64,000 nucleotides of DNA from Ostreococcus lucimarinus (Eukaryota): NCBI GenBank assembly GCA_000092065.1, contig CP000581.1; one strand, written 5' to 3'. Below the pieces are notes generated by a model. That model did no database searches, had not been told where the DNA came from, and worked only from the letters and a program-made list of their open reading frames with translations. The position numbers were made by a program, and so were the translations under genes. This document shows, one piece after another, positions 9,679-40,300 of this stretch. How positions within the stretch are numbered: the first letter of the stretch is position 1; every line of letters begins with the position of its first letter.

Positions 9679-9740
9679 CTAGTTTAGGAAAATCAGAAAA
9701 GTAAAAACAAATTGCTAACATTGCTAAAGCTCGACGCGTT

Positions 9741-11009
9741 TCAATCTCCTGTTTCTTGGCGAACAAGCTTGCCAGACGGTGTTTCTGTGTAGTCGACGAC
9801 CACGTCCCCTGTTGGAATGTCAACCATCGATCGCGAGCGATGCAACCCGTTTTCAGATTCCGTATCTTCGTCAAACGACAGGCGTGGGGGCTTCCAGCCA
9901 TCTTTCACCGCCTTCGTTAAAGGTGGAACGAAGTCTTTCTTGCGGCTCACCAGGCCCGGAAGTTTCAGCATCGTTCCATCGTTCTCGAGCACTCCACTGT
10001 ACGCCGCCACGGCGAGCGAGGCCTCGACGCGTCCGCAGATCAGCAGTGTGGACGTGAGGTTGACAATGTCGACGATAGCTAGAAGCATGGCTTTCGTGGA
10101 TGGCGTCACCAACTTTACGGCGCGCATTTCCGGAAGTATATCCGCCGCTCGCGAGAGCGATGCGTCCGCATCCGTCGTCTCGATGACCGAATACGCCACC
10201 TCGTACGTCTCCTGATCACCAGTGAACTTGAACTGCTTCATATCACCGTTCACGAGTGCATACGGTGTCATCAGACTCAGCGACTGACTCTTCGCGCGAA
10301 ACTGTCGGGCTGCGAGCTCGTTCACATCCTGGACCTCTAAGTACTGCACCAGCATCGTCACGACGCGCTCATCCCACGTCGTCGTCGTTGGAGACTTCAA
10401 GTTTAGCGTGTCACTCAAAATCGCGCTAAGCAACATTCCGGCTATGTGTTTGGGCAAAAACTTCCCTTGTACCGCGTGATTATGCGCGATGATGGACGAC
10501 ATGCACCCCCACGGTCGAATGTCGACGAAAATCGGTCGCTCAGTCACGATGGTGTTCGACTGCAGCGCGTGATGATCGATAATCCCCACGATGTTCCCCA
10601 TCGGAATCGCCGGGTTCAACTGCGACTGCTGCTGAAAATCAACCAAGCAGACGTTCCTATCCGGTCGTTCCGCTAAAAGTGTCTCCACGGGTTCGGGCAG
10701 CGTCGCGCCCCACGTATCCAGCGCGAATCGCGTCTCCGTGTTCACGGCGCTCGCGACCGCCGCGCTCCCTCCGTACAGATTCGCCGCCCCGATCGCCCCC
10801 GCGACGGAATCTAAATCTGTCACCAAGTGTCCGACGAATATCGCGTCGTCCAGGCTCGGAAAGAACGCGTTCGTCTCCCCCTCGCGCGTCGGCAGGTGCG
10901 CCAGGAGTTTTTCAGCCTCCGCCCAGTTCGCGTCGACCGCGTGCTCCAGCGTCGTCTCTTCGCGCGCGCTGTACGTCTCCCGCCGCTCGCGCTTCAGCGT
11001 CATCTTCAT
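9741..11009 (-). CDS. DHH-family phosphoesterase: family II inorganic pyrophosphatase / exopolyphosphatase (DHH plus DHHA2)
   Basis: GHLVTDLDSVAGAIGAANLYGG (Asp-rich motif I/II) and GIIDHHAL (DHH motif) are present, plus a DHHA2-like C-terminal half. Start set at MKMTLKRE (aa 201 of the listed ORF). The 200 upstream residues are R/S/T low complexity that overlaps the divergent promoter. A targeting extension cannot be excluded. Confidence 0.7.
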   Translation of the reverse strand: MKMTLKRERRETYSAREETTLEHAVDANWAEAEKLLAHLPTREGETNAFFPSLDDAIFVGHLVTDLDSVAGAIGAANLYGGSAAVASAVNTETRFALDTWGATLPEPVETLLAERPDRNVCLVDFQQQSQLNPAIPMGNIVGIIDHHALQSNTIVTERPIFVDIRPWGCMSSIIAHNHAVQGKFLPKHIAGMLLSAILSDTLNLKSPTTTTWDERVVTMLVQYLEVQDVNELAARQFRAKSQSLSLMTPYALVNGDMKQFKFTGDQETYEVAYSVIETTDADASLSRAADILPEMRAVKLVTPSTKAMLLAIVDIVNLTSTLLICGRVEASLAVAAYSGVLENDGTMLKLPGLVSRKKDFVPPLTKAVKDGWKPPRLSFDEDTESENGLHRSRSMVDIPTGDVVVDYTETPSGKLVRQETGD

Positions 11010-11267
11010 CGACGCGATCGCGACCGCGACGACGCACGCCCACGCCGCCGTTCGGCGCGGCGTCGCCGGTCGCGCGCGCGGTGTCGTAACCGCCTCGACG
11101 CTCGCGTCGGCGCGCGCGCGAGCGCGTCGCGCGCGCGAGCGCGTCGCCGTCGTCCGCGACGACGCGGCGATGACGCGTCGCGCCTCGCTCGCGCGCGCTC
11201 GAGGCGCGCGCGCGTCGCGATGTCGCGTCGTCGCCGTCCGTCGCCGCGCGTCGTCGAGCGATGCATC

Positions 11268-27298: not shown

Positions 27299-28273
27299 TT
27301 GGCGACGCGATCGAGCGAACGACGCGCGATGGCGACGCGAGTGCGCGCGAGCGACGCGGGAACGGCGCGCGCGATGCGGGTGAACGCTTGGAGATCGCGC
27401 GGACGCGGCGGTGGGGGGGTCGGGACGACGCGAGGAGGCGCGAGAAGGGCGAGGGGAGGGACGGCGGCGCGCGCGGCGGCGACGAGGTTGGAGGTTTCGA
27501 GCGCGGGGGCGATTTTAGTGCCGCATCCGGATAAGGCGGATAAGGGCGGCGAAGACGCGTGCTTCGTGTTGAAGCAAAGCGGTGCGTTCGGGGTGTTCGA
27601 CGGCGTCGGAGGATGGGCGGAGGAGGGGGTGGATCCGGCGGAGTATAGCGAAAAGTTTGCCGAGAAATCCGCGCAGAGCGTGTTGGCGGGACAACGCGAC
27701 CCGGTCGCGGTGATGAGGGACGCGCACGAGGCGACGCAGGTGATCGGTTCGTGCACGGCGTGCATCGCGGTGTTGAAAAATGGAAACGTGCTGGATATCG
27801 CGAACTTGGGCGACGCCGGGGCGTTGGTTTCGCGCGACGGCGGCGTGGTGTTTCACACAAAGTCGCAACAGCACGAGTTCAACTTGCCGTATCAGCTCGG
27901 CTGGACGAAGGTGTATCCCGAAGGCGATCGCCCGGACGCGGCGGATCGCGTCGAGGTAGAGATGAAACCGGGCGATGCCGTCGTTTTGGGGTCGGATGGT
28001 TTATGGGACAACGTGCCGTACGCTGAAGTCGCGGCGCTGTGCGCCGAGCACCAAGGCGACGCCGAAGAGTGCGCCGAGGCCATCGCGACGCTCGCGTTCG
28101 GTTACTCTTGTGATCCCGAGTACGACTCGCCTTTCACGCAAGAAGCGCGAAAAGCGGCGGAGGGGAGACCGGAATGGGCCGATAGAAGAAACTTGATTGG
28201 TGGGAAGATGGACGACATCGCCGTCGTGTGCATGTTCGTAGAAGCTTCGCGAGGTTTGAGCGGTGGGACTTAG
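27299..28273 (+). CDS. PP2C-family protein phosphatase (PTC7 / SpoIIE-like PPM)
   Basis: EDACFVLKQSGAFGVFDGVGGW (PPM motif DGxGG), ...LGSDGLWDNV and a C-terminal MDDIAVVCMFV (metal-binding Asp). N-terminal 75 aa are Arg/Gly-rich and look like a targeting sequence. Confidence 0.75.
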   Translation: MATRSSERRAMATRVRASDAGTARAMRVNAWRSRGRGGGGVGTTRGGARRARGGTAARAAATRLEVSSAGAILVPHPDKADKGGEDACFVLKQSGAFGVFDGVGGWAEEGVDPAEYSEKFAEKSAQSVLAGQRDPVAVMRDAHEATQVIGSCTACIAVLKNGNVLDIANLGDAGALVSRDGGVVFHTKSQQHEFNLPYQLGWTKVYPEGDRPDAADRVEVEMKPGDAVVLGSDGLWDNVPYAEVAALCAEHQGDAEECAEAIATLAFGYSCDPEYDSPFTQEARKAAEGRPEWADRRNLIGGKMDDIAVVCMFVEASRGLSGGT

Positions 28274-28349
28274 AGGCATTTTTAAAACTTCAAATCGCGA
28301 CATAGACTACAATCATCTGCTAAACTAACGTCGCCTCAACGACGTCGCT

Positions 28350-29432
28350 TCACGCAAGCTCGTCGTCGAGACCGCGCACGAGGAGCATGAACCACAGAGC
28401 GCTCGTGAAACTCTTCTCTTTAATCGTCATCGTCAACGCGCCGGCGAGGACGGTTTTCACGAGCTGCGCGTCGAGACCTTTGTACATACCACTCACGCCT
28501 TCTTCTCTGTGCACTCGCTTGAGCGTGCCTAATAGCGAACGTCTATCTTCCTCGCGCGTTCCCGCCTTTTGCAAAACCTTGGCGCGCACGAGAGGGTACG
28601 TCAGCATCGTCGCCGTCGCCTTGGACGCGGCGCCGAGGACAAAGGCGTCAAACATCGACAACTCCACGACGGGCTTTAAGATCCCACGCCGCTGCGCGCG
28701 AGCGTTGTGCACGATCATCAACTTTTGACGAAGTTGCTCGAAGACGGTGTATTGAATCGCGGGATTGATCGTCAGCGCGAGTGAAGCGCCGAGACCGCTA
28801 TACAATCCGCCGCGCGCGTCGGCGGCGCCTCGTCCGCCTCGCAACGCTCGTAAAGTGTTTTTGAACCCATCATCGCCCTCGTCGTCATCGAACGCCTTTG
28901 AGCCAGTATCACCGACCGTTTTCTTTCCTTCCAGTTGTTTCCGCGTCGTGTACGTATCTAAAGGCTCCGTGACGAGCACGTTACAGCATCCCGCCGCCGC
29001 CGCCGCCGCGAGCGTCGCCCCCACCCCAATCTTTTTCCCCGTTCGCTCCTCGTACGTCCGCTTCAGCGCGCTGAACGCTAAAAAGTACAAAAAGCTCGAC
29101 GAAAGCGAATGTGCCGACTTCGCCAACGCCCCACCGTACGCCCCCGCCGCGCCTTCCTCGCGAAACACCCGCGCCAACTTTGTCACCCACTGGGGACACC
29201 AAAAACCGTTACCGTCGTCGTCGGCTTCCGAGTTGTTTCCGCGCGCCGCGCTCTCGGCCTGGATCCGCGTCTTCACCGTGTCGATCGGGTATAACGCGAG
29301 CGTGCCGAACAATCCGCCGAGCGCGCCTGCGAACGCGCGCGTCGTCGTCAGTCGCGCGGTTTCGTCGGAAGCGATCGAGCCGTGCGAACGCGTCGAGCCG
29401 TCGAGACGCGCGCGGCGCGACGCGAGACGCAC
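28350..29432 (-). CDS. Mitochondrial carrier family (SLC25) protein
   Basis: Three tandem approximately 100-aa repeats, each with the PxD/ExxK/R-type signature (LYPIDTVKTRIQ, EPLDTYTTRKQ, TYPLVRAKVLQ) and 6 TM helices. Confidence 0.8.
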   Translation of the reverse strand: MRLASRRARLDGSTRSHGSIASDETARLTTTRAFAGALGGLFGTLALYPIDTVKTRIQAESAARGNNSEADDDGNGFWCPQWVTKLARVFREEGAAGAYGGALAKSAHSLSSSFLYFLAFSALKRTYEERTGKKIGVGATLAAAAAAGCCNVLVTEPLDTYTTRKQLEGKKTVGDTGSKAFDDDEGDDGFKNTLRALRGGRGAADARGGLYSGLGASLALTINPAIQYTVFEQLRQKLMIVHNARAQRRGILKPVVELSMFDAFVLGAASKATATMLTYPLVRAKVLQKAGTREEDRRSLLGTLKRVHREEGVSGMYKGLDAQLVKTVLAGALTMTIKEKSFTSALWFMLLVRGLDDELA

Positions 29433-29591
29433 CGGCCAAGGCCTCGACGAGGATCTTATCGTTCGACGTGAGCTTGCTCGACGCCTTGATGACGGACGTC
29501 GTCGGCGTCGGCGTCGACATCGCGAGAAGAGCGTGGAGAAGTGCGGCGCGGCGCGACGCGACGGGCGACGCGGAGGAAGTCGACTCGTGGA

Positions 29592-29766
29592 ATATTATAT
29601 TGAAAAGCTTACTTGAGGAGGAGTTCGGCGCATTGCACGGCGTTTAAGGCGGCGCCCTTCTTGATTTGGTCACCACACACGAACAAATCCAAGCCCTTGT
29701 TGTTGGGCTGGGAGATGTCTTGACGGATGCGACCGACGTAGACGTCGTCGTTATCCGTGGCGTCGA
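29592..29766. repeat. Repeat A: a 175-bp, 100% identical duplicate of the ASADH 3' coding end plus its downstream 32 bp (original at 36001..36175)
   Basis: Compared base by base: atattatattgaaaagcttacttgaggaggagttcggcgcattgcacggcgtttaaggcggcgcccttcttgatttggtcacc...ccgtggcgtcgag is identical at both places. The minus-strand ORF 29609..29839 ends with the same 47 aa as ASADH ([51 protein letters not shown]). Confidence 0.9.
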
Positions 29767-29791
29767 GACACGCCGTAACGCGTCTGCGCGC

Positions 29792-30027
29792 GATCGTCTC
29801 TCTCGTCAGTCTCCCGCGTCGCGTCGTCCTCGCGCGCACGCACCGGCACCTCGCGACGACTCTCGCGTCGGTCGTCGACCGTCAACGCGCCGAGACGCGC
29901 GCGCGCGCCCACCGTCTCGCGCGAGGACGACGACGGTGAAGACGACGCATCGTCTCGCGACGCGTCGGCTCGCGACGCGTCGGCTCGCGACGAGCGCGCC
30001 TCCACGCGCGCGCGAGGGCGCGCGTCC
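29792..30027. repeat. Repeat B copy 1 (about 235 bp; second copy at 34715..34949, about 95% identity, same orientation)
   Basis: atcgtctctctcgtcagtctcccgcgtcgcgtcgtc...gaggacgacgacggtgaagacgacgcatcgtctcgcgacgc...gagggcgcgcgtcc is present on both flanks of the peroxidase-PAN gene, with a few substitutions and one 15-nt unit variation. Confidence 0.85.
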
Positions 30028-30271
30028 ACGAGCTTGTCGCGCCGGGACGCCCGGCGCGCATGCCCCCAGCGCTTGTGCGTGAGACGCCCGCGCGCGTCAT
30101 CAATCAGTTCGCAGCATGGGGAATCCCCATGCCCGAAGAGCGACGCGACGCGGGCGACGAACACTGACGCGCGCGACCAAGACTCGTGCCCGGGTGGGCA
30201 CCTGCCGTTTTTTGTTTTTTTGTTTTTTGTCTATCTACTGTAAAGAGAATGTTAAATATGTAACATCGTGT

Positions 30272-30390
30272 GGGTCCGCTTTAAGTAGTTTAGGTCCGCT
30301 TTAGTACCTAGTAGTGTTTGGATCCGTTATAGTGCTATCTTGGGTCCGCCCTCAGTGGTCGTCCCGACCGACCGACCGACCGACCGATCG
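30272..30390. promoter_or_regulatory. Promoter-proximal degenerate approximately 20-bp tandem repeats (GGTCCGCTTTAGTA-like, 4 copies) followed by a (GACC)6 microsatellite, preceded by a T-rich tract (30206..30232)
   Basis: gggtccgctttaagtag / ttaggtccgctttagtac / ttggatccgttatagtg / ttgggtccgccctcagtgg, then cccgaccgaccgaccgaccgaccgatcgac. They end about 30 bp before the ATG at 30420. This is the only AT-rich upstream stretch in the window. Confidence 0.5.
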
Positions 30391-30419
30391 ACATTCTGGC
30401 GCGCGCGCGTCGCCCCGCG

Positions 30420-33400
30420 ATGGACGAATCGACGCCGTTGATCGGGCGGCGACGGGAAGGGAGACGCGGCGCGCGCGGCGCGCTCGTCGTCGGCGCGCTC
30501 GCGTGCGCGTGCGGAACGCTCGTGGCGTTGGCGAATTGCCCGCACCTGGTGTCGACACTCTCACGGGCGATTGGTGTTGGAGACGCGGACGGCGCGGGTG
30601 CGCGCGGGGTGAACGCGGTCTTCGCGCGCCTCGGTGCGGTGTGGGGACGCGATGATTCTGATTACGTGTACACGTCGCTCGAACGTGATTTACTGCGCCC
30701 TCACGAAGACGACGATGAAATCGAAGACGAAATCGACGAAATTGACGCCGACGCGAAGGACGGAAAGGTTGCCGAACACACTTCGACAGACCAACTGCAC
30801 GGTCGAGGAAACGAAGGCTTGGCAAAGGTCGCAACTCTGGGCGAGCCCGCACTTCCGACCGATTTGCCGCCGTCACGCGCGTTGGCGACGCTCGACGAGA
30901 TTGAAGCTGTTTTACTGGGCAACTGGCGAAAGTGGACGCGCTTGGACGTCGTGCGCGGACGCGCTGAACTGGAAACCGTGCGAGATAAACTCGCTGCTCT
31001 CGTTGGTGATGACGTGAATGAAACAACTGTCGCCAACTCTGCCGCAGAGGTGACAAACGAGACGTCGTTTATTTCTTGCAAGGCTGAACAACTCGTACGT
31101 GAAATCCTGAGTGAGTACGGCGGCGCACCCAAACTTCTACTCCCAAAATTGTTGCGCTTCATTTTCCACGACGCGGTTGACGAGAACAACTTATTAATCC
31201 AAAAGGATGGAGGCTATGTACCGTTTAGGGCACCAACTGGCTCGATATACGGCGGTTTGGACCTTTGCCTTTACTCTCCCCTGACGCATGGAACGTCTGG
31301 GAAACCAGACCCTGGGCATAACAGAAATGTTCGAATGAACCGCGAGGTTATCAAATTGTGTGACGCTGTCTGTAAAGATTTGAATACTGGTTTATGTGAA
31401 CTGCAGAATGATAAACCTAAACGGTGCTATACGGACATGTTAGCGTTTAGTTCCATAATCGTTCTGGAGAAGCACTCAAAGCTTAGTGCCCCATCTTCAA
31501 TGGTTTGGGGAAGGCGAGGCGGTGAGTGTGGCAACAGCATCGTTACACCATTTACCAAAAGCAGGGAGAAGCTTGAATCCTACGTTGGAAAACCTGCGCT
31601 GAACTTTGCGCCGGCGCTTCATGCCATGGACGATCCCGGCACCTTCTCGAGAGTCTTTGCAAAACTTGGATTTACGCCTTCAGAGCACGTCGCGTTGATG
31701 GGAGCTCACAGTGTGGGTAAAATTTCACCATGCGCGAGTGGACTCAACGGTATCGAAAAAGGTAACTTTTGCCCGATGAAGAAGCGATATGATCCACCCA
31801 TCGAGATAGGGAATGAATCCCCACAGTGCCAGCCACAAAAACACGTTCAGGGCAACTGTTGGAAACCCTCTGGACCGAAGTCTTATGCCACTCCGTATTA
31901 CTACTTCTTTCGTGGTGGGAGAACAGGGTACAAGACCGGCTTCGCCGACGGTGGGGTTTGGGATCACACGCCTGATTCGCTTGACAATCAGTATTACAAG
32001 TTGATGTACGACGAAGACTATGGGGGACGCACTAAGTGTTGCGGGAAAAAGAAGAATGGCGGTTGCCATCGGGGTGGGCAACCAGTCGACAGGGAAACTG
32101 GGAGAAAACTCCCTTTTTCCTCATTATGCAACATAAATTGGTGCCGCTCAGACCGCAAAGGTAGGACACACATGAAGTCTACAAAAGCTTGGGTCGAACC
32201 CAGACATTCGCTCTTAAAATTGCCCTACTTTCGCGGAACCATCGTGAAAATGATAAGACTTGCCGGTGATTGGGCTCTTCTCGGGAACAATGAAACACAA
32301 TCGATTCTGAAGCGTTATGCAGAAGATGAAAACGAATTCCATTCCAATTTTGCGGTGGCCTGGGATAAGGTGTTACGGAAGGGGTACTTCCTTGACGAGC
32401 TGAAAACGTGTTCGAACGTGTCAGGACCGAAAGATGCGCAACTTCTTACTCGCCTAAGGGAGTACCAAGCTGCACTGTCGGCCAAACGCGCCAAACGCGT
32501 GGCCAAAAATGCACGACGCGCCGGGGTCGAAGCCGAAAGTTCTGACCAAACATCGAATCTTGGAGATCAAAGTTCACACAACAAACTTGGACAACAAAGT
32601 TCAGCACAAGAAGATGCAACCACAGATAAAACACTGCAAGTTGCAACGGCAACCATGGATGATGCGAAGTACGACGACGGGCTTGACACTGCAACGAACG
32701 CATCGGATCTCGAGCAAGTTGTACCAAAGTCAATTTCAACGACCATTCAACATTGTGATAAGTTCAATGTGCTTGGTCTCGTCAAACACATCCGGTCAGA
32801 GATACAGAAGCTCCCTCGAGATACTACACCTCTTGCGATAGGGCAAGAGCTCACTGCGGCGAGAGACGTAGTCATGGGACAAAACGTACAGATGAGCGAG
32901 CCGACGCCTGCGCCTGCGCCCACACCTACGCCGACGCCTGCGCCTGCGCCTGCGCCTGCGCCTGCGCCTGCGCCTGCGCCCACACCCGCACCTTCGCCAG
33001 GAGTGGAGCAAAGCGACGAGTCCAGCAACGAAGATGGAGGTGACGCGAAAATCTACAGCTTGGAGCACGCAGGCGCACGGTGCGTAGGGCTGCCTCGTGC
33101 CAAGCGAGTGAAGCGAACGCGCAGTGTGGAGGAGTGTGCTGAGTTGGTGAAAAAACGTGGGCACCTCCACTTTGCCTTCCTCCGCAACACCGTGTGCTTG
33201 GAGCAGCCAAAACCGTGGAGCAAATGTCGTCGCATTCGCAAGGGCCGATTTGATCTTTACAAGATCAAAGCAGAGCCTGCGCCTCCTGCGCCTCCGCCTG
33301 CGCCTCCTGCGCCTCCTACGCCGTCTACGTGGTCGTCTACGTGGTCGTCTACACCTTCCACTTACAGTTACAGTGCAGCGACATGCAAGCGCGATCGTGG

Positions 33401-34619
33401 CAAGTTCGTTGATGGGAAATGCTGGCATATGGCTACGACTGACACATCTTGTGAAGAGACATGTGCTGACAAAAATCTTCAATATGATGAGGGCACGCAC
33501 CTGGGCTCGCCGAAGAACCCTGAGACCTGGGACAAGTGTGTGGCTGTCGCCCAGATGTTTAAAAAGCAGGCAAGGACGAATGGGCCAGCGATCGGCGGGG
33601 GTGGTGGCTGTGGCTGTTCAGTCTTTAAGATTCCTGTTTACGGTACGAATGATGCAGTTCGCCTGAGTGGCGCCAATACTACGAGCCCCGAGTGTTGGAA
33701 GATGGGCCCAATCCAAGCACGTCTCTGCGCATGCAAACCAGCATCAGCTGTTGGCGCAAGTTGCACCTCTTCCTCAAGCTGCTTGAACGCTTATTGTAAG
33801 TCAGGCGTTTGCACGAGTTTTTTGGCCCAGAACAGTGCATGCACCGAGCACGCTTCGTGCGTGACAGGCTATTGCTCACCAACGGAACGTAAATGCACGA
33901 CGGTGTCATGGAAGTCACAAAAAGGCGCGTATGCCAAAAAGTACTATAACGCTGGTAAAAAGAAATTCAGGGTTATGCCAAAACAGAAGAACGTACCTGA
34001 TTGGGAGGCGATGACGACGTTTCCAAAGGGTTTTTGTATCGGAAATGACAGCGCCGGTTGCTTGATAGCACGCGGTGTCAACCGCCAGAAGACGATTCAA
34101 AAAGCCAAACAGCGTTGTGCGTCGTCTGAGGAATGCGTGGCTGTTTGGTGTTGCGCAACAGGATGTCCAGCCACGACGTGTCATGCAGTCAAGACTAGAA
34201 CTCCAAATTACGCGGCGAACGATTGCCCGCTCTTTCCTGGAAGCTTCCGCGAGACCAAATACCCGGCTACGTTCTATACTAAAGACACGGAGGGCGCTCA
34301 AGTACACGAGTCACCGCGAAACATCGTGACGGAAGTGGACATTGCTGCGAGTGCCGATGAAGGGGAAAACATGTACAGTCGGATAAAAGGAGGGAAAAGA
34401 AGGAAGGTAGACGCAAAGCAATGCCCCTTACAAAAATTGAAAGCGCACACCTTGGACGAGTGCGCTGAGATGGTGAGGGAACACGGAAGCCTTCACTTTG
34501 CCTTCGGACATAAAAGGTGCTTTTTGGCCAAACAACCGTGGAGCGAATGCGAGACGAGCCATGGCAAGTATGATCTTTTTCAAATCGACGAACACGCACG
34601 CGACGACGATGAAGATTGA
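30420..34619 (+). CDS. Giant secreted/membrane-anchored plant-type (class II/III-like) heme peroxidase fused to Pro-Ala/Pro-Thr mucin-like linkers, Cys-rich modules and two PAN/Apple-like domains (1399 aa)
   Basis: N-terminal hydrophobic anchor (ALVVGALACACGTLVALANC). Peroxidase motifs: LLRFIFHDAV (distal His, R..FHD), ALMGAHSVG (proximal His), DSLDNQYYKLM (FDNxYY). (PA)n and PxxP linkers are encoded by (CCTGCG)n at 32904..32990 and again at 33275..33350. Two approximately 60-aa repeats, ...SVEECAELVKKRGHLHFAFLRNTVCLEQ... and ...TLDECAEMVREHGSLHFAFGHKRCFLAKQ..., have PAN-like Cys spacing. Additional Cys-rich (EGF/GCC-like) segments are present. Confidence 0.7.
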   Translation: MDESTPLIGRRREGRRGARGALVVGALACACGTLVALANCPHLVSTLSRAIGVGDADGAGARGVNAVFARLGAVWGRDDSDYVYTSLERDLLRPHEDDDEIEDEIDEIDADAKDGKVAEHTSTDQLHGRGNEGLAKVATLGEPALPTDLPPSRALATLDEIEAVLLGNWRKWTRLDVVRGRAELETVRDKLAALVGDDVNETTVANSAAEVTNETSFISCKAEQLVREILSEYGGAPKLLLPKLLRFIFHDAVDENNLLIQKDGGYVPFRAPTGSIYGGLDLCLYSPLTHGTSGKPDPGHNRNVRMNREVIKLCDAVCKDLNTGLCELQNDKPKRCYTDMLAFSSIIVLEKHSKLSAPSSMVWGRRGGECGNSIVTPFTKSREKLESYVGKPALNFAPALHAMDDPGTFSRVFAKLGFTPSEHVALMGAHSVGKISPCASGLNGIEKGNFCPMKKRYDPPIEIGNESPQCQPQKHVQGNCWKPSGPKSYATPYYYFFRGGRTGYKTGFADGGVWDHTPDSLDNQYYKLMYDEDYGGRTKCCGKKKNGGCHRGGQPVDRETGRKLPFSSLCNINWCRSDRKGRTHMKSTKAWVEPRHSLLKLPYFRGTIVKMIRLAGDWALLGNNETQSILKRYAEDENEFHSNFAVAWDKVLRKGYFLDELKTCSNVSGPKDAQLLTRLREYQAALSAKRAKRVAKNARRAGVEAESSDQTSNLGDQSSHNKLGQQSSAQEDATTDKTLQVATATMDDAKYDDGLDTATNASDLEQVVPKSISTTIQHCDKFNVLGLVKHIRSEIQKLPRDTTPLAIGQELTAARDVVMGQNVQMSEPTPAPAPTPTPTPAPAPAPAPAPAPAPTPAPSPGVEQSDESSNEDGGDAKIYSLEHAGARCVGLPRAKRVKRTRSVEECAELVKKRGHLHFAFLRNTVCLEQPKPWSKCRRIRKGRFDLYKIKAEPAPPAPPPAPPAPPTPSTWSSTWSSTPSTYSYSAATCKRDRGKFVDGKCWHMATTDTSCEETCADKNLQYDEGTHLGSPKNPETWDKCVAVAQMFKKQARTNGPAIGGGGGCGCSVFKIPVYGTNDAVRLSGANTTSPECWKMGPIQARLCACKPASAVGASCTSSSSCLNAYCKSGVCTSFLAQNSACTEHASCVTGYCSPTERKCTTVSWKSQKGAYAKKYYNAGKKKFRVMPKQKNVPDWEAMTTFPKGFCIGNDSAGCLIARGVNRQKTIQKAKQRCASSEECVAVWCCATGCPATTCHAVKTRTPNYAANDCPLFPGSFRETKYPATFYTKDTEGAQVHESPRNIVTEVDIAASADEGENMYSRIKGGKRRKVDAKQCPLQKLKAHTLDECAEMVREHGSLHFAFGHKRCFLAKQPWSECETSHGKYDLFQIDEHARDDDED

Positions 34620-34621
34620 GT

Positions 34622-34714
34622 CCCAAGAAATGAAATCCTTTACAAGTTTACAAGAAATGAAATCCTTTTACAACAATTTTTGATCACCATCCTTTTTAAA
34701 CAATTTTGATCACC
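34622..34714. repeat. AT-rich 3' UTR direct repeats (caagaaatgaaatcc x2; ttttgatcaccatc x2)
   Basis: Seen directly, immediately after the peroxidase-PAN stop codon. Confidence 0.6.
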
Positions 34715-34949
34715 ATCGTCTCTCTCGTCAGTCTCCCGCGTCGCGTCGTCATCGCGCGCACGCACCGGCACCTCGCGACGACTCTCGCGTCGGTCGTCGA
34801 ACGTCAACACGCCGAGACACGTGCGCGCGCCCACCGTCTCGCGCGAGGACGACGACGGTGAAGACGACGCATCGTCTCGCGACGCATCGTCTCGCGACGC
34901 GTCGGCTCGCGACGAGCGCTCCTCCACGCGCGCGCGAGGGCGCGCGTCC
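34715..34949. repeat. Repeat B copy 2
   Basis: See 29792..30027. Confidence 0.85.
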
Positions 34950-35254
34950 GCGCGTGGCGCGACCGGCGCGCGGGCGCGACCGACGGCGCGAGGCGCTGGC
35001 TATGTGTACGCACTCATAGTAGTGGTCACGATGACGTATCGTGCGCGTTCTTCACCCATCTATTTGCATTCCTCGACATCGCACTCGTAGTAGTGGTCAC
35101 GACGGCGGGAAAACCACCGTTCCTCCGCGGCTCACTGTTTGCGCATAGAGAAAAATTCCGGCGTGGTCGCCCGCGTCAGGAGGGACTCTTGGAGGTGTGT
35201 GACTCGTCGCTACATCTTAAACCTCGTGCGGAGATAGATCCCTTGCGGAGACGA

Positions 35255-35294
35255 TTACGCCGACGAGGGGAGACGATCGACGCGCGCGCGCGCG
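35255..35294. repeat. Repeat C (40 bp, ttacgccgacgaggggagacgatcgacgcgcgcgcgcgcg). Second copy at 35959..35998, directly abutting repeat A / the ASADH 3' end.
   Basis: Seen directly. The two copies flank the PLAC8 gene as direct repeats. Confidence 0.8.
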
Positions 35295-35452
35295 CGGGAC
35301 GCGGCATACATCGACGCACCGCGCGCCAAAACTCTCAAAGTATCGTCACCGAGCGCACACGCTCGATTTTGACGCATCTCGACGCACGTTTGTAACGCGC
35401 GCGACACCTGTTCAATCCTCAATCGGATCACTCAATTAACTTTTAAAACACC

Positions 35453-35836
35453 ATGCCGGAACGTAACCCTGGTTTGGCTTACATGATGCACGTCCCCGGT
35501 GGCTGCATGGAGGACACCGGCGATTGCTGCTACGCGTCCTGCTGCCCGGCTTGCCACATGGGTTCGATCGCGGACAGAACGAACACGGGCAGCTTCTGCA
35601 TGACGGCCGCTATCGCGAGTTGTCTCGGCCCATTCTCGCCCCTCTACTTGAAGTGCGTCGCGAGCAAGGCTCTCGAATCCGTCGGCGTCAAACCGGTCGG
35701 ATACGTGGAATCCTGCTCCATGCCGAGTTGCGTGGCGTGCCAAGTCAGCCGCGAGATCAACGAGAGAAAGCAAATGGGCGGCAAGACCGGCGGCGCGCCC
35801 ACCGCCGCTCCGACGGCGCAAACCGTCGCGCGATGA
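35453..35836 (+). CDS. PLAC8-family (FW2.2/CNR/PCR-like) small Cys-rich membrane protein
   Basis: GDCCYASCCPACHMG...FCMTAAIASCLGPFSPLYLKC...SCSMPSCVACQVSREINERK matches the PLAC8 signature: a CCxxxCCPxC start and a C-terminal CxxCA(L/C)xQxxRE. 127 aa. Confidence 0.75.
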   Translation: MPERNPGLAYMMHVPGGCMEDTGDCCYASCCPACHMGSIADRTNTGSFCMTAAIASCLGPFSPLYLKCVASKALESVGVKPVGYVESCSMPSCVACQVSREINERKQMGGKTGGAPTAAPTAQTVAR

Positions 35837-36017
35837 TTCCAATCATCATCCACTCGCGCCTCGGCCGACGCCATCGGCCGCGCGACGCCTCTGCGTTCGT
35901 CAACGACGACACAGCACGCACGACAATTACAATAAGTTTAATATGAATGACACGCACTTACGCCGACGAGGGGAGACGATCGACGCGCGCGCGCGCGCGA
36001 ATATTATATTGAAAAGC

Positions 36018-37235
36018 TTACTTGAGGAGGAGTTCGGCGCATTGCACGGCGTTTAAGGCGGCGCCCTTCTTGATTTGGTCACCACACACGAACAAATCCA
36101 AGCCCTTGTTGTTGGGCTGGGAGATGTCTTGACGGATGCGACCGACGTAGACGTCGTCGTTATCCGTGGCGTCGAGCGGGGTGGGGAAACGGTTGGCGGC
36201 GCGATCGTCGATGATGGAAACGCCCGCGGCGGAGGACAAGATTTCTTTCGCCTTGACTTCATCGAGCGGGTTCTTCAACGTCAAGTTGATGGATTCCGCG
36301 TGCGCACGCATCACCGGCACCCGAATGCACGTGGCGGTGATGTTGACGTCTTTGAAGTCCCAAATCTTTCTCGTCTCCTTGACCATCTTCATCTCTTCCT
36401 CGTTGTAACCATTCTCCGTCATCGGGGCGTTGTGAGAGAACAAGTTGAACGCATACTGCCACTGGAAGATTTCCATCGTCTTGCACTCACCGTCGTTCAC
36501 CACTTCTCTCGTTTGTTGCTCCAACTCCTTCATCGCGAGCGCGCCGGCGCCGCTCGCCGCTTGGTACGTCGACACGACGATACGTTCGACGCCCACGGCG
36601 CGGTGAATCGGCGTCACCGCCATGAGCGCGATGATGGTGGAGCAGTTCGGGTTCGCGATGATCCCAGCCTTACCACCGAGCTTCAAGTGCGCCATGGCTT
36701 CCGGATTCACCTCCGGAATCACCAACGGCACCCCATCCGTCATGCGAAACGCGCTCGAGTTATCCACCACGAAGCACCCCTTCTCCACCGCCACCGGTCC
36801 AAACTTTTTCGAGATCGACCCCCCCGCGGAGAACAACGCGATATCTTGCCCATCGAACGAGCTCTCCGTCAGTTCCTCCACGACGTACGTCTCGCCGTCG
36901 AAATCCACCTTCGACCCCGCGCTTCGCGCGCTCGCCAGCATCTTCATCTCGCTATACGGAAAGTCCCTCTCCTTGAGCACGCGCAGGAACTCCTGTCCGA
37001 CCGCGCCCGTGATTCCCGCGATGACCACCTTCGGTCCGTCCGCCGTTCGCTTCGCCTCGACGCGCACCGCCCCTCGCGTCCCGCGCGCGCCCCGCGCGAT
37101 CCTTTTCGTCGTCGCTTTCAGCGCGTTCGCGTTCGCGATTCGCGCTCTCGCGCTCGTCGTCGCGCGCATCGTCGTCGTCCGCTCGTCCCTCGTCCCTCGT
37201 CGGCGCTCGTCGCGGCGCGTCGGCGTGTGTCGCAC
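36018..37235 (-). CDS. ASD: Aspartate-semialdehyde dehydrogenase with an N-terminal transit-like extension
   Basis: VVIAGITGAVGQEF (Rossmann fold), GIIANPNCSTIIALMAVTPIH (active-site Cys), ...YQAASGAG... and the C-terminal [19 protein letters not shown]. The first 70 aa are R/T/A-rich. Confidence 0.85.
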   Translation of the reverse strand: MRHTPTRRDERRRGTRDERTTTMRATTSARARIANANALKATTKRIARGARGTRGAVRVEAKRTADGPKVVIAGITGAVGQEFLRVLKERDFPYSEMKMLASARSAGSKVDFDGETYVVEELTESSFDGQDIALFSAGGSISKKFGPVAVEKGCFVVDNSSAFRMTDGVPLVIPEVNPEAMAHLKLGGKAGIIANPNCSTIIALMAVTPIHRAVGVERIVVSTYQAASGAGALAMKELEQQTREVVNDGECKTMEIFQWQYAFNLFSHNAPMTENGYNEEEMKMVKETRKIWDFKDVNITATCIRVPVMRAHAESINLTLKNPLDEVKAKEILSSAAGVSIIDDRAANRFPTPLDATDNDDVYVGRIRQDISQPNNKGLDLFVCGDQIKKGAALNAVQCAELLLK

Positions 37236-37504
37236 CGCGCGCGCGTCGCCTCTCTTTTGGGGTTTCTCGACGCGCGCTGATCTTCGCCATACGAGGGTGT
37301 TTTTCGACGTTCGCCGCGCGAGGGTTTTTTTCGACGCGCGCGAATCGAACGAATCGAATCTCGCGCGCGAGGGCGCGACGCGACGGACGCAGATCGCGAC
37401 GCGCGCGAACGCCGAGCGAAGGCGGAACGCGCGAAGGCGCGAAGGCGCGAACGCGCGAAGGCGCGAACGCGAGCGACGGACGCGGGACGCGACGGCGAGC
37501 GACG

Positions 37505-40300
37505 ATGCCGATGCGGTTGGACATCAAGCGCAAGCTCGTGCAGCGGAGCGACCGGGTGAAGGGGGTGGAGATACACCCCACGGAACCGTGGATACTGACG
37601 AATCTGTACTCGGGGAACGTGGCGATATGGGATTACGAGACGAACGCGCTGGTGAAGTCGTTCGAGGTGACGGAACTGCCGGTGAGGACGTCGAAGTGGA
37701 TCGCGCGCAAGCAGTGGATCGCGACGGGGGCGGACGACATGTTCCTGAGGGTGTATAATTATAACACGTCGGAGTTGGTGGTCGGGTTCGAGGCGCACAG
37801 CGATTACATACGGTCGATCGCGGTGCATCCGACGCAACCGTACGTGGTGACGTGCTCGGATGATATGCTCATCAAGCTTTGGGATTGGGAAAGGCAGTGG
37901 GACTGCGCGATGGTGTTCGAGGGACACTCGCACTACGTGATGCACGTGGTGTTCAACCCGAAGGATACGAACACGTTCGCCAGCGCCTCGCTCGATCGCA
38001 CCATCAAGGTGTGGAACGTGACGTCGCCGGTGTGCAATTTTACGCTCGAGGGTCACGAAAAAGGGGTCAACTGCGTCGACTACTTCGCCGGCGGCGATCG
38101 CCCGTACCTCATCTCCGGCGCTGACGATAAGTTGGCTAAGATTTGGGATTACCAGACGAAATCGTGCGTTCAAACGCTCGAAGGTCACGCGCACAACGTT
38201 TCGGCGGTGAGCTTCCACCCCGAACTTCCCGTGATCATCACCGGGAGCGAGGACGGGACGCTGCGCATCTGGCATCAGAATACGTATCGCTTGGAGAACA
38301 CGCTCAACTATGGATTGGAGCGGGTTTGGGCGATCGGTTGCTTGAAGGGATCGAATTCGGTGGCGATCGGTTACGACGAAGGGACGGTGATGTTCAAGAT
38401 CGGTCGCGATGAGCCCGTGGTGAGCATGGACAGCACCGGTAAGATCATCTGGTGCAAACACAACGAAGTGCAGACGACAAACGTCAAGGCGCTTCCGGCG
38501 GATTACGAAGCCGCGGACGGTGAGAGACTGCCGTTACCGGTGAAGGAACTCGGTAACAGTGAACTGTACCCGCAGAGCTTGGCGCACAACCCGAACGGAC
38601 GGTTCGTTGCCGTTTGCGGCGACGGCGAATACATCATCTACACCGCCCTCGCGTGGAGAAATAAGAGCTTCGGGAGCGCGATTGAATTCGCTTGGAGCAT
38701 CGATCCCAGCGAGTTCGCTGTTCGTGAAAGTTCGAGTAAGATTAAAGTTTTCAAGAACTTTACGGAAAAGAACGCTTTCCGCCCTAATTTCACCGCTGAA
38801 GGTTTGCACGGCGGCGCATTGCTCGGTCTTCGCTCGACGGATTTCATTTGCTTTTACGATTGGGATGAGTGCCGTGTCATTCGTCGCTTGGATGTGTCGG
38901 TTAAAAACGTCATCTGGAGTGAGTCGGGTGAAATGGTCACCATAGTAAGCGATACGAGCTTCTTTATCCTGCGATACAACCTTGAAGCGACTGCGGAGGC
39001 TTTCGCATCTGGACACGTGGACGAGAGCGAGGGCGTTGAAGAGTCGTTCGAGCTGATTTCCGAAATCAACGAGTCGGTCAGCACGGGTATTTGGGTGGGA
39101 GATTGCTTCATCTACACTAACACCGATAAGCGTTTGAACTACTGCGTCGGTGGCGAAGTGACGACCCTTACACACTTGGATCGTTCCATGTTCATCTTGG
39201 GTTACCTCGCGGCGCAAAACCGTGTCTTCTTGATGGACAAGAATTTTGCCGTCGTGTCCTTTACTTTGCTGTTGACCGTGGTCGAATTCAAGACATTGAT
39301 CCTTCGCGGTGAGTTGGAGGCCGCAGAGGAAGTTCTCGAGACGATCCCGGTCGATCAGCACAATTCCATCGCGCGCTTCCTCGAGTCTCGCGGCTTGGTG
39401 AGCGACGCCTTACGCATTGCGACCGACCCGGATTTCAAGTTTGAACTCGCTGTTCAATTAGGTGAACTCGATATCGCCCGAGAAATCGTAGAAACGGAAG
39501 GTGCGAATGAGTCGAAATGGAAGCAACTCGGTGAGCTTGCGATGTCGAATGGTGACCTCGAGCTCACGAACAAGTGCTTAGAAAAGTCTGGAGATTTGTC
39601 TGGTCAGTTGTTACTTGCGACCTCATCTGGATCACCAGAGACGCTCAAGCAACTCGTGGAGGAATCGAAACTCAAGGGTAAGAACAATGTGGCGTTTGTA
39701 TCGATGTTCATGCTGAAAGATATCGATGGTTGCATCGACTTATTGATCGAGACAAAGCGTATTCCCGAGGCGGCGTTCATGGCGCGCACATATGCGCCGA
39801 GTCGTGTATCTGAAATCATCGCATTGTGGAAGGATGACTTGAGTAAGGTAAACAAGAAGGCAGCCGAGGCTTTAGCCGATCCAGCGGGACATCTGGAGTT
39901 ATTCGAAGGCTTTGATGAGGCACTCGACGCGGAAAAACACGCCAGAGCGCAAGCGGGCGCCCAGGCCGACGCGTGCGAATATGGCGTCGGGCTCGCCGTT
40001 GACAAGCTTACGGATGCGATCGACGACATCGATGTGAACGAGCAACAAGATCAGTCAGAAGCTGTAGCGGAGCCCGAAATCGAGGAAGAGGCGTCGCCGG
40101 AATCCGATATCGCGGTGGAGCCAGAATCTGAAGTGGTGGATGAGGCGGAACAGGAAGTCGAGGCAGAACAGGAAGTCGAGGCGGAACAGGAAGTCGAGGC
40201 GGAACAGGAACCCGAGGTATCATCCGGCGAGCCAGCCGCAGATGGTGGTGAAGAGGATTGGGGTTTGGACGATGACGCCGCACCGGCGAAGGCTGATTAA
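37505..40300 (+). CDS. COPB2: Coatomer subunit beta-prime (COPB2)
   Basis: MPMRLDIKRKLVQRSDRVKGVEIHPTEPWILTNLYSGNVAIWDYETNALVKSFEV... is near-identical to eukaryotic beta-prime COP WD40 repeats. An alpha-solenoid follows, then an acidic Glu/Gln-rich tail encoded by (GGAACAGGAAGTCGAGGC)n. Confidence 0.9.
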   Translation: MPMRLDIKRKLVQRSDRVKGVEIHPTEPWILTNLYSGNVAIWDYETNALVKSFEVTELPVRTSKWIARKQWIATGADDMFLRVYNYNTSELVVGFEAHSDYIRSIAVHPTQPYVVTCSDDMLIKLWDWERQWDCAMVFEGHSHYVMHVVFNPKDTNTFASASLDRTIKVWNVTSPVCNFTLEGHEKGVNCVDYFAGGDRPYLISGADDKLAKIWDYQTKSCVQTLEGHAHNVSAVSFHPELPVIITGSEDGTLRIWHQNTYRLENTLNYGLERVWAIGCLKGSNSVAIGYDEGTVMFKIGRDEPVVSMDSTGKIIWCKHNEVQTTNVKALPADYEAADGERLPLPVKELGNSELYPQSLAHNPNGRFVAVCGDGEYIIYTALAWRNKSFGSAIEFAWSIDPSEFAVRESSSKIKVFKNFTEKNAFRPNFTAEGLHGGALLGLRSTDFICFYDWDECRVIRRLDVSVKNVIWSESGEMVTIVSDTSFFILRYNLEATAEAFASGHVDESEGVEESFELISEINESVSTGIWVGDCFIYTNTDKRLNYCVGGEVTTLTHLDRSMFILGYLAAQNRVFLMDKNFAVVSFTLLLTVVEFKTLILRGELEAAEEVLETIPVDQHNSIARFLESRGLVSDALRIATDPDFKFELAVQLGELDIAREIVETEGANESKWKQLGELAMSNGDLELTNKCLEKSGDLSGQLLLATSSGSPETLKQLVEESKLKGKNNVAFVSMFMLKDIDGCIDLLIETKRIPEAAFMARTYAPSRVSEIIALWKDDLSKVNKKAAEALADPAGHLELFEGFDEALDAEKHARAQAGAQADACEYGVGLAVDKLTDAIDDIDVNEQQDQSEAVAEPEIEEEASPESDIAVEPESEVVDEAEQEVEAEQEVEAEQEVEAEQEPEVSSGEPAADGGEEDWGLDDDAAPAKAD

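Follow-up and report, generated by a model that had tools for sequence, protein, structure and literature searches.

The interval between the mitochondrial carrier gene and the ASADH gene on chromosome 1 of Ostreococcus lucimarinus CCE9901 is probably a structurally polymorphic island of accessory genes, assembled by at least two nested insertions of the copy type in which illegitimate repair of a DNA break left long duplications of the target. We analyzed it within a 64-kb stretch of that chromosome (the window, to which coordinates refer unless a contig is named), and no prior description of the locus was found in the literature searched. Ostreococcus genomes are haploid and extremely compact, so that nearly any insertion would be expected to damage a gene; here the addition of genes can be traced stepwise, the empty allele still occurs in nature, and duplication of the target leaves both neighbours with a complete end.

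Three pairs of direct repeats mark the segment: A (29590-29767) and A' (35999-36176), of 178 nt each and 100% identical; B (29793-30030) and B' (34715-34952), of 238 nt each and 96% identical, with differences at 9/238 positions; and C (35255-35296) and C' (35958-35999), of 42 nt each and again 100% identical. All three had been recognized in a preliminary description made from the letters of the sequence, the coordinates of which were off by only 1-3 bases. To the left lies the conserved carrier gene (28350-29520, minus strand; two exons, ATG at 29520; Pfam Mito_carr, E=8e-39), whose exon 1 and intron are conserved with O. tauri and with the lineage of contig L012, followed by the 69 bp (29521-29589) that form the non-duplicated part of the ancestral ASADH-to-carrier spacer. 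To the right lies the equally conserved and intact ASADH gene (36018-37169, minus strand; Pfam PF01118 and PF02774; XP_001415825 of O. lucimarinus CCE9901), of which A' is the genuine 3' end, continuous with the remainder of the gene. A, also on the minus strand, is a pseudo-copy of that end on the carrier side, holding the final 52 codons, the stop codon and 19 nt of 3' UTR; the truncated ORF already reported there (29609-29839) is present and matches the ASADH C-terminal domain weakly in Pfam. No further copies of A, B or C occur within the 64-kb window, and the one other place at which B and C were seen is the native PLAC8 locus in relatives. The layout was recovered at 99.5-99.8% identity in independent assemblies of 1.13 Mb (L001) and 93 kb (L016) and in Tara scaffolds (L019, L026 and L027), and contigs L028-L035 likewise reproduce it. 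A 76-aa ORF of L016, considered as a third copy of A, was rejected, this contig being merely collinear with the window; L015, considered as a divergent ASADH allele, was also rejected, as it matches the window perfectly as far as ~36650 and then shows ~70% identity to its end, probably a chimeric contig end.

The same site is found without the insert. In O. tauri and the L012 lineage the carrier gene comes right after ASADH, with 75-78 bp from the ASADH stop to the carrier ATG, and it is equally adjacent in the lineages of L048/L050 and L058; the ancestral spacer of O. lucimarinus measures 88 bp, and the motif AATATTC(C)ACGAGTCG is common to the spacers of the window and of O. tauri. Within O. 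lucimarinus itself, a 35-kb wild contig (L047, with flanks 99.3-99.7% identical) and a second contig (L062) each carry exactly one A, continuous with the 69-bp spacer segment, and the empty site is thus a segregating allele of this species. The empty site is precise, by spacer sequence, in L047, L062, O. tauri and the L012 lineage, and is given by gene adjacency in L048 and L058. The expectation that an unoccupied site would run directly from carrier to ASADH is therefore borne out both among species and as an allele. ASADH is nearly invariant in O. lucimarinus (1/993 differences), the A' region shows 0/178 differences across all haplotypes compared, and every non-lucimarinus lineage sampled at the ASADH locus has only 74-80% DNA identity.

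The backbone of the insert, comprising the 25 bp after A, B/B', the following spacer and the PLAC8 gene, is a contiguous copy of a second locus, to which it is ~94% identical. The copied part comprises a DUF8204 gene's 5' end together with PLAC8, and the locus occurs in its native position in a different Ostreococcus lineage. By blastn, positions 9262-10505 of L065 match window positions 29760-30059 at 92% and 34715-35957 at 91% (94% overall by alignment). The left end of this first insert (29768-29792, minus strand), which holds further codons of the truncated DUF8204 gene, agrees with L065 at 24/25 positions and is contiguous there with B; B (minus strand) represents the ~71 first codons and 5' leader of the DUF8204-family gene and agrees with the native locus of L065 at 225/238. 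B' (minus strand), encoding the N-terminal 71-77 aa of the DUF8204 neighbour and contiguous on its right with donor-type spacer, agrees with L068 at 236/238 positions, or at 298/300 when the next 62 bp are included, and its translation has 92% aa identity to the DUF8204 N-terminus of L065. Between the DUF8204 fragment and PLAC8, the intergenic sequence (34953-35452), C included, derives from the donor and is collinear with L065, L068 and L069, and the PLAC8 3' region (35837-35957, plus strand) agrees with L065 at 113/121. The PLAC8-like gene itself (35453-35836, plus strand; XP_001415487) encodes a small Cys-rich protein of 127 aa, which scores 20.6 bits against PF04749 (cut-off 34.4; E=9e-4) and bears the UniRef name PLAC8 family protein; in another lineage a homologue (87% aa identity) is flanked by DUF8204 and RanBP1 genes, an order found in three related contigs, and a search of viral contigs found no relatives of it.

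The copy begins inside the DUF8204 coding sequence, an arbitrary end point that leaves a truncated gene, and it entered ASADH 52 codons before the stop. At the left junction the last 8 nt of A, GCGTCGAG, are common to target and donor locus. At the right, C' appears to be a secondary patch standing in place of the original end: L008 has 215 bp instead at this position, of which the first ~41 bp match the donor's own 3' flank and the remaining ~175 bp are unmatched filler at what would be the ancestral right junction. On the two strands of the 64 kb together GCGTCGAG is found just 28 times, a point in favour of the microhomology; against this, the word is GC-rich and fairly common.

Nested within the DUF8204 fragment is a second insert of different character. 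Its gene (30420-34619, plus strand) encodes a 1399-aa protein with, in order, a basic N-terminus, a hydrophobic stretch that we read as a putative membrane anchor, a haem peroxidase domain (PF00141; 45 bits, gathering threshold 27), a Pro/Ala-rich linker and a Cys-rich C-terminal part with an internal Cys-containing repeat. The domain is a divergent class I peroxidase with distant and weak matches to solved APX and CcP structures. The preliminary gene identities stand for the peroxidase domain, ASADH and the mitochondrial carrier, but the PAN/Apple assignment does not, as no Pfam family matches residues 831-1399 at E<=5. The gene brought with it an upstream region (30031-30419, plus strand) that lacks clear homology to the donor PLAC8 locus (the B/B' match stops at 30030 and the L065 blastn alignment fades by 30059) and falls within a 4922-bp unit tandemly duplicated in L018; the peroxidase 3' region (34620-34714, plus strand) forms the right end of the insert and adjoins the start of B', and at the array junction of L018 a B copy comes directly after it. 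Relatives of the protein were found only in uncultured eukaryotes and one dinoflagellate transcriptome (~45% identity), the gene has 49-54% GC against ~58-65% in its flanks, and searches yielded neither a donor of the gene nor relatives of its domain in viral contigs. As had been proposed, it looks acquired.

Wild haplotypes show that the island has continued to change. L018 carries two tandem 4922-bp peroxidase units joined via one B copy, L022 lacks the peroxidase gene and has one B, which is mosaic, and diagnostic sites of B and B' are shuffled among haplotypes, B variants being mosaics; the B/B' pair now drives unequal recombination and gene conversion, two processes that had been anticipated. 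The extra substitutions in B are clustered at one end. L002, L003, L006 and L034 have an unrelated 166 bp in place of B'. In some haplotypes the whole left half has been swapped for a different membrane-protein gene: L043 lacks A, the 25 bp that follow it, and B, and carries an alternative cargo gene for which neither a Pfam family nor a solved-structure relative was found. We considered L043 as the first state, with A gained later by exchange with the empty allele, and rejected this, since the 25 bp and B missing from it are contiguous in the donor, which makes L043 derived. In a sister lineage the same site holds an unrelated DUF285/BspA-like gene flanked by a ~69-bp duplication of the carrier 5' end, the two arms of which come from different contigs. 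The island varies from 2.5 to 11 kb, and the alternative cargoes at the spacer (peroxidase, a 437-aa membrane protein and a BspA-like giant protein) are, judged by sequence, putative membrane or surface proteins. Once formed, it draws further insertions and rearrangements.

The history that best accommodates these observations would have three steps. In the first, a ~1.5-kb copy holding the DUF8204 5' end, the divergent promoter region and the PLAC8-like gene would have been joined into ASADH via the GCGTCGAG microhomology, leaving the 178 bp from the join point to 19 nt past the stop on both sides as A and A'; by virtue of this duplication ASADH kept its complete coding end and the carrier gene its ancestral upstream sequence. 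In the second, the 4.7-kb peroxidase gene, of foreign or unknown origin, would have entered the DUF8204 fragment with duplication of ~238 bp, the present B and B'. In the third, C' would have taken the place of the original right end as a templated patch and, in some haplotypes, the 166 bp that of B'; in others the membrane-protein gene would have replaced the entire left half. The order of these smaller events is probable rather than certain. At each insertion, end joining or template switching at a DNA break would have duplicated a long stretch of target. The repeats had been taken for one nested framing device; instead, the three pairs are best read as traces of distinct events, of which two duplicated the target and one was a later patch, and both B' and C' are missing from some wild haplotypes. 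This history carries a cost: the divergence of B from B' (9/238) exceeds that of B' from the donor lineage (2-4/238), which calls for extra assumptions of mutagenic repair or conversion. Overall, the earlier reading of a genuine inserted structure survives; the recency attached to it is not supported, and the mobile element and the single framing set do not hold.

The perfect identity of A and A' had suggested a very recent event. Nesting places A/A' before B/B', which are only 96% identical; inserts that have a common right-hand junction (C' abutting A') diverge by ~3% between haplotypes, and ASADH is near-invariant. Homogenisation or constraint is therefore the better reading, and we infer that the identity was kept by conversion, by constraint on A as the carrier promoter, or by both.

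Among alternatives to end joining of a free fragment, replicative template switching of the FoSTeS/MMBIR type fares best, though we consider it unlikely. A fork stalled or broken in ASADH would have switched by microhomology to the PLAC8 locus, copied ~1.5 kb and returned 178 bp behind its exit point, and the process would have been repeated for the peroxidase gene and for the B' and C' patches. Such a course agrees with microhomology at the sole testable junction, with a duplicative copy in which the truncated neighbouring gene was copied along, with several short patches whose templates lie at distances between a few hundred bp and a few kb (as C for C'), and with the piling of substitutions at one end of B that error-prone synthesis would give. 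It sits poorly with a donor in another species, which offers no resident template and would require capture of free DNA, and the O. tauri precedent of a 518-bp duplication arose with exogenous linear DNA. The scars left by the two mechanisms are nearly the same.

A mobile element that captured host sequence and inserted with target-site duplication, whether a non-autonomous transposon, a Helitron-like element or an integrating virus or episome, is very improbable, even though the insert is flanked by direct repeats and the locus has been hit repeatedly by different genes in different lineages. Duplications of 69, 178 and ~238 bp are much longer and more variable than those made by transposases; the backbone simply reproduces a chromosomal locus as one contiguous copy, truncated neighbouring gene included; and it has no other copies in the window and no relatives in viral contigs. 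Consistent with the preliminary description on this point, a survey of inverted repeats in 28000-38000 showed no pair linking the ends of the insert (29768 and 35998), which are bounded by neither terminal inverted nor long terminal repeats; the repeats found are all GC-rich, chance-like and <=42 nt with 71-87% complementarity. ORF and Pfam searches of the insert found no transposase, integrase or reverse transcriptase; the peroxidase and PLAC8-like genes are its only long ORFs with protein-family support, Pfam giving only PF00141 and the weak PLAC8 match. No tRNA or Rfam family was found.

Slightly less credible again is integration of the Campbell type, in which circular DNA bearing the 178-bp ASADH fragment recombined with ASADH, the homologous stretch ending up on either side of the insert. 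Homologous recombination is within the capacity of Ostreococcus, and a perfect long direct repeat would arise in one step. However, the donor-type locus and ASADH have only 8 bp in common at the junction, not 178 bp, the right junction originally held unrelated filler, and the same architecture is seen again at other targets, namely B and the carrier 5' end, for each of which a separate circle with matching sequence would have to be supposed. Collapse or expansion of repeats in the reference assembly can be practically discounted: many short-read metagenome contigs do end in or near the repeats, but at least six independent assemblies from different projects cover the full A-to-A' structure and separate contigs carry a clean empty allele, which disposes of the earlier concern about an artefact.

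A further reading of the same evidence, which we advance only tentatively, is that the PLAC8 segment may have originated in another species of Ostreococcus and, after transfer, been captured during break repair, and that the ASADH-carrier spacer may serve as a recurrent landing pad for alternative membrane- or surface-protein genes, possibly under viral pressure. It draws on the close match of the insert to the L065/L068 native locus, on the fact that none of the RanBP1, ribosomal S5 and CofD proteins of that lineage shares a 90%-identity cluster with any CCE9901 protein, and on the much lower identity of other lineages at the ASADH locus. The locus would then be a candidate for the exchange of genes among species of picoalgae; in any event it offers markers of presence/absence and copy number that can be tested by PCR in wild populations of O. 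lucimarinus.

Several known systems offer partial parallels. In plants and animals, end joining mediated by Pol theta, as in T-DNA and transgene integration, leaves microhomology, nearby-templated patches and occasional target duplications, all of which recur here; Pol theta filler patches are typically tens of bp, whereas the present duplications span 69 to ~238 bp, and the likeness is one of scars. Transposons likewise leave direct target repeats around the insertion and a clean empty site, but their duplications are short and of fixed length, and here element termini and enzymes are missing and the cargo is simply copied from another locus. In human genomic disorders, segmental duplications undergo non-allelic homologous recombination (NAHR), and the ~240-bp direct repeats at ~96% identity have similarly yielded a tandem duplication, a probable deletion and mosaic conversion tracts; in contrast to the human case, the scale is that of kilobases in a 13-Mb haploid genome and the repeats are by-products of insertions. 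Nearer in phylogeny is the hypervariable small outlier chromosome of Mamiellales, which is reported to be linked to prasinovirus resistance (PMC5498103, PMC5082852, PMC13390643). It resembles the island in strain-variable content, alternative putative membrane or surface cargo, duplications and deletions within a species, and GC lower than that of the genome around it, and differs in that the island occupies a few kilobases between two housekeeping genes on ordinary chromosome 1.

The nearest precedent comes from O. tauri, in which an integrated transgene vector lay between direct copies of 518 bp of MetAP2, together with filler DNA, and integration was attributed to an NHEJ-like pathway (Thomy et al. 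2021, PMC8002553). The two cases have in common the genus, a long direct target duplication, junction filler of unknown origin and no element-encoded machinery. That insertion was a laboratory event in which PEG was used to introduce an artificial plasmid (PMC8002553), whereas the inserts described here arose in nature from chromosomal or foreign genes, lie one within the other, have been fixed for long enough to have diversified and still segregate against an empty allele in the sea. The island is a natural counterpart of what was obtained when DNA was forced into O. tauri.

All three direct-repeat pairs of the preliminary description were recovered by a repeat search of 28000-38000: A (29590-29767) and A' (35999-36176), 178 nt and 100% identical; B (29793-30030) and B' (34715-34952), 238 nt and 96% identical; and C (35255-35296) and C' (35958-35999), 42 nt and 100% identical. 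None has additional copies within the 64-kb window. Repeat A comprises the last 52 ASADH codons, the stop codon and 19 nt of 3' UTR, and the truncated ORF described at 29609-29839 is present, with a weak match to the ASADH dimerisation domain. Domain searches bore out the identities assigned to ASADH (XP_001415825 by exact protein look-up), the mitochondrial carrier and the haem-peroxidase domain; the PLAC8 label (XP_001415487, by the same look-up) has a domain match, although a sub-threshold one, and the PAN label on the peroxidase gene is without Pfam support. The region so labelled, in the C-terminal half of the peroxidase, carries two copies of a Cys-containing module (..EC.E.V...G.LHFAF..; 33118-33179 and 34444-34505) and matches no Pfam model. 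Alternating (CG)n tracts coincide with several breakpoints or repeat ends (35281-35296, 35984-35999, 30005-30024 and 34927-34946), and (CG)8 forms the end of both C and C'; such tracts can form Z-DNA and provoke breaks in other systems.

The expectation of an empty site with the carrier gene beside ASADH was confirmed in other lineages and within the same species. The carrier ATG lies 78 bp past the ASADH stop in O. tauri (L011) and 75 bp past it in a second lineage (L012-L014), and the carrier gene directly follows ASADH in the L048/L050 and L058/L061 lineages. The motif AATATTCACCAGACG lies within the O. tauri spacer and AATATTCCACGAGTCG spans the left edge of A in the window, so that each copy retains its ancestral surroundings on one flank, A towards the carrier gene and A' towards ASADH. 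The empty allele persists within O. lucimarinus itself: L047, a 35-kb contig with 99.3% and 99.7% identity to the two flanks, and L062 both lead, base for base, from ASADH to the carrier gene with just one A on the way, so that the filled allele equals the empty one plus 6409 bp (a 6231-bp insert and the second A). Nor is the filled form an assembly artefact, a concern raised at the outset, since independent assemblies match the window collinearly over the full A to A' layout: a 1.13-Mb JGI contig (L001), a 93-kb SPAdes contig (L016), Tara scaffolds (L019, L026 and L027) and several 6-kb contigs.

The insert was assembled in at least two nested steps, of which the first brought in the PLAC8 gene. 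Relatives of the PLAC8-like protein occur in close Ostreococcus lineages only, and in L065-L069 the native gene sits at a different locus within a conserved order, Voldacs - DUF8204 - PLAC8 - RanBP1 - nucleoporin. By DNA comparison, positions 9262-10505 of L065, a contig of a lineage with the donor-type native locus, align collinearly with the window over two intervals: 29760-30059 (25 bp after A, plus B; 92% identity) and 34715-35957 (B', spacer, C, PLAC8 and its 3' region; 91%). A segment reconstructed with a single B showed 94% identity to L065 and L068 in a multiple alignment, and L068, of the same donor-type lineage, matches B' and the next 62 bp at 298/300 positions. In translation, B' corresponds to the N-terminal 71-77 residues of the neighbouring DUF8204 gene (92% amino acid identity). 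The insert backbone is thus an ordinary contiguous copy, about 1.5 kb long, of the DUF8204-PLAC8 locus, ending inside the neighbouring gene. At the left junction, donor sequence (...GCGTCGAG followed by ACACGCC...) and ASADH target (...GGCGTCGAG followed by CGGGGTG...) share 8 bp of microhomology, a word that occurs 28 times in the window, both strands counted. At the right end, the wild haplotype L008 has 215 bp in place of C', the first ~41 bp of which continue the donor's own 3' flank and the remaining ~175 bp of which match none of the sequences compared; this indicates that the reference acquired C' later, as a patch copied from C, and that the original junction held filler.

The peroxidase gene entered this backbone second. 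The donor-type locus has one B, which runs without a break into the 25-bp stretch at one end and into the spacer at the other, whereas in the window 30031-34714 (an upstream region, the 4.2-kb gene and a 3' region) sits between two copies, which identifies B and B' as the target duplication of this second event. Protein relatives of the peroxidase comprise a variant of the same protein at 94% and a single relative at 45%, the latter encoded beside a COG5 gene in an uncultured eukaryote; an exhaustive profile search added about 100 distant relatives, from uncultured eukaryotes and a dinoflagellate transcriptome, and found none in sequenced Mamiellales. Given these few relatives, their absence from sequenced Mamiellales and a GC content (49-54%) lower than that of the surroundings, we infer that the gene was acquired. 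Just upstream of it and after a T-rich tract, a GG(T/A)TCCGC/T motif occurs in four spaced copies over 30262-30352 (gggtccgcttta, aggtccgcttta, ggatccgtta and gggtccgccc), which may be a promoter element brought in with the gene.

The preliminary description took the perfect identity of A and A' as a sign of a very recent event, a reading that the nesting does not support: A/A' must be older than B/B', yet the older pair is identical and the younger 96% identical, so that perfect identity of A is no evidence of recency. Moreover, the reference and the wild haplotype L043 have the right-hand junction in common and differ by 3.3% across the shared insert; ASADH differs between them at 1/993 positions and A' at 0/178. 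Conversion from the selected end of ASADH, constraint, or both would more likely account for the identity of the two copies; A is also the sequence that ancestrally bordered the carrier gene on its upstream side, where the native spacer is only 88 bp. Within PLAC8 itself (35453-35836 against L043 7455-7838), 14/384 nt differ, with nine amino acid changes, and several haplotype differences touch Cys positions, a pattern that suggests fast or diversifying evolution of this small Cys-rich protein.

In the sea the ASADH-carrier locus is highly polymorphic. Four contigs (L002, L003, L006 and L034) have an unrelated 166 bp in place of B' and 89 flanking bases. In another, L018, two 4922-bp peroxidase units follow each other in tandem with one B copy linking them, and the far end carries the 166-bp variant, exactly as expected from unequal exchange between the reference and 166-bp forms; and diagnostic sites of B and B' are shuffled among haplotypes, indicating gene conversion or recombination between copies. 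Non-allelic recombination or conversion on the repeats, one of the mechanisms first proposed, is thus documented by both its tandem product and its mosaics. In L043 and L046 a 1.54-kb cassette (L043 8251-9790) takes the place of A, B, the peroxidase gene and the carrier-side spacer from 29548, while the PLAC8 part and the C'-A' junction are kept. The cassette encodes a 437-residue ORF that has a hydrophobic stretch at its N-terminus and is without relatives in Pfam or PDB, and its stop codon in L043 falls exactly at the breakpoint with window position 35037. A further left flank, in L010 (1-101), joins window position 34996 and matches none of the sequences compared, which hints at yet another cargo at this position. 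One contig, L015, matches the window at 100% identity over 10 kb and then falls abruptly to ~70% over the 3' half of ASADH (change at ~10600-11241, window ~36650-36018), ending 95 bp past the ASADH stop; it is probably a chimeric assembly, joined where the sequence is conserved, a replaced gene end being the less favoured explanation.

The same spot received a different gene in a sister lineage of ~78% DNA identity. There, the 3' end of a >1400-residue gene with DUF285/BspA-type repeats comes after ASADH (L037 11170-15398, L038 1329-5561), and L051, L054, L056 and L057 have, upstream of the carrier gene, the 5' end of a gene that carries repeats of this type; the DUF285 match was tested, and the hydrophobic and charged-repeat stretches that follow the repeats were read by eye. 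On the ASADH side the spacer leads into the carrier 5' leader, the ATG and the first ~15 codons before breaking into the foreign gene, and on the far side these ~69 bp recur ahead of the intact carrier gene (88% identity, the arms being on different contigs), a duplication that preserves the carrier 5' end. Since the closely related contigs L048 and L050 have the empty site, a separate insertion with the same kind of long target duplication is indicated. A 2.9-kb megahit contig (L022, 1-2903) joins sister-lineage ASADH and 183 bp downstream (99.7% to L037), through a 5-bp overlap (CAAGT), to the middle of an O. lucimarinus-type PLAC8 (window 35653), continuing through C, the spacer, a single mosaic B without the peroxidase gene, and A to the carrier gene. 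It is either chimeric or a real recombinant between lineages, and its right half is the only example of PLAC8 without peroxidase but with A.

The origin of the backbone bears on transfer between species. Non-lucimarinus lineages recovered at the ASADH locus all show 74-80% DNA identity to the window, the ASADH upstream spacer is hardly alignable between lineages, and in a carrier-gene scan no lineage took a position between these and O. lucimarinus. RanBP1, ribosomal protein S5 and CofD of the L065 lineage fall in 90%-identity clusters without any CCE9901 protein. Against this background, the insert's 94% identity to the PLAC8 region that is native to L065 and L068, a match that extends to the non-coding parts, would favour either a source lineage resembling L065/L068 or a hypervariable locus at which different species share old alleles. 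Between L065 and its close relative L069, identity is 93.5% over 18 kb but only 83% around PLAC8 (~9262-10548), so the region is hypervariable even where it has never moved.

As to mechanism, illegitimate break repair would fit the target duplications of the three insertions (69, 178 and ~238 bp), the microhomology at the one testable junction, the filler, the truncated donor copy and the lack of element features at the insert (terminal repeats, transposase, tRNA or Rfam family). Capture of a free DNA fragment at staggered breaks is given the edge, as the donor may have been foreign DNA; replicative template switching, another form of such repair, comes second. The mobile element also proposed earlier is contradicted by a backbone that is a plain chromosomal copy cut off inside a neighbouring gene. 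That the ASADH-carrier site was used repeatedly may be a matter of survivorship and not of a fragile sequence: most insertions into so dense a haploid genome are lethal (PMC8002553), and an existing island is one of few safe targets.

The closest documented case of break repair of this kind comes from O. tauri transformed with PEG: in one line a 518-bp stretch of MetAP2 stood as a direct duplication on the two sides of the vector, and a junction had gained 83 bp of unknown origin, an outcome that the authors ascribed to an NHEJ-like pathway (PMC8002553). The likeness lies in the long direct target duplication and the filler at a junction, and the ASADH-carrier locus is a well-resolved natural example of this known process, with the donor as its interesting question.
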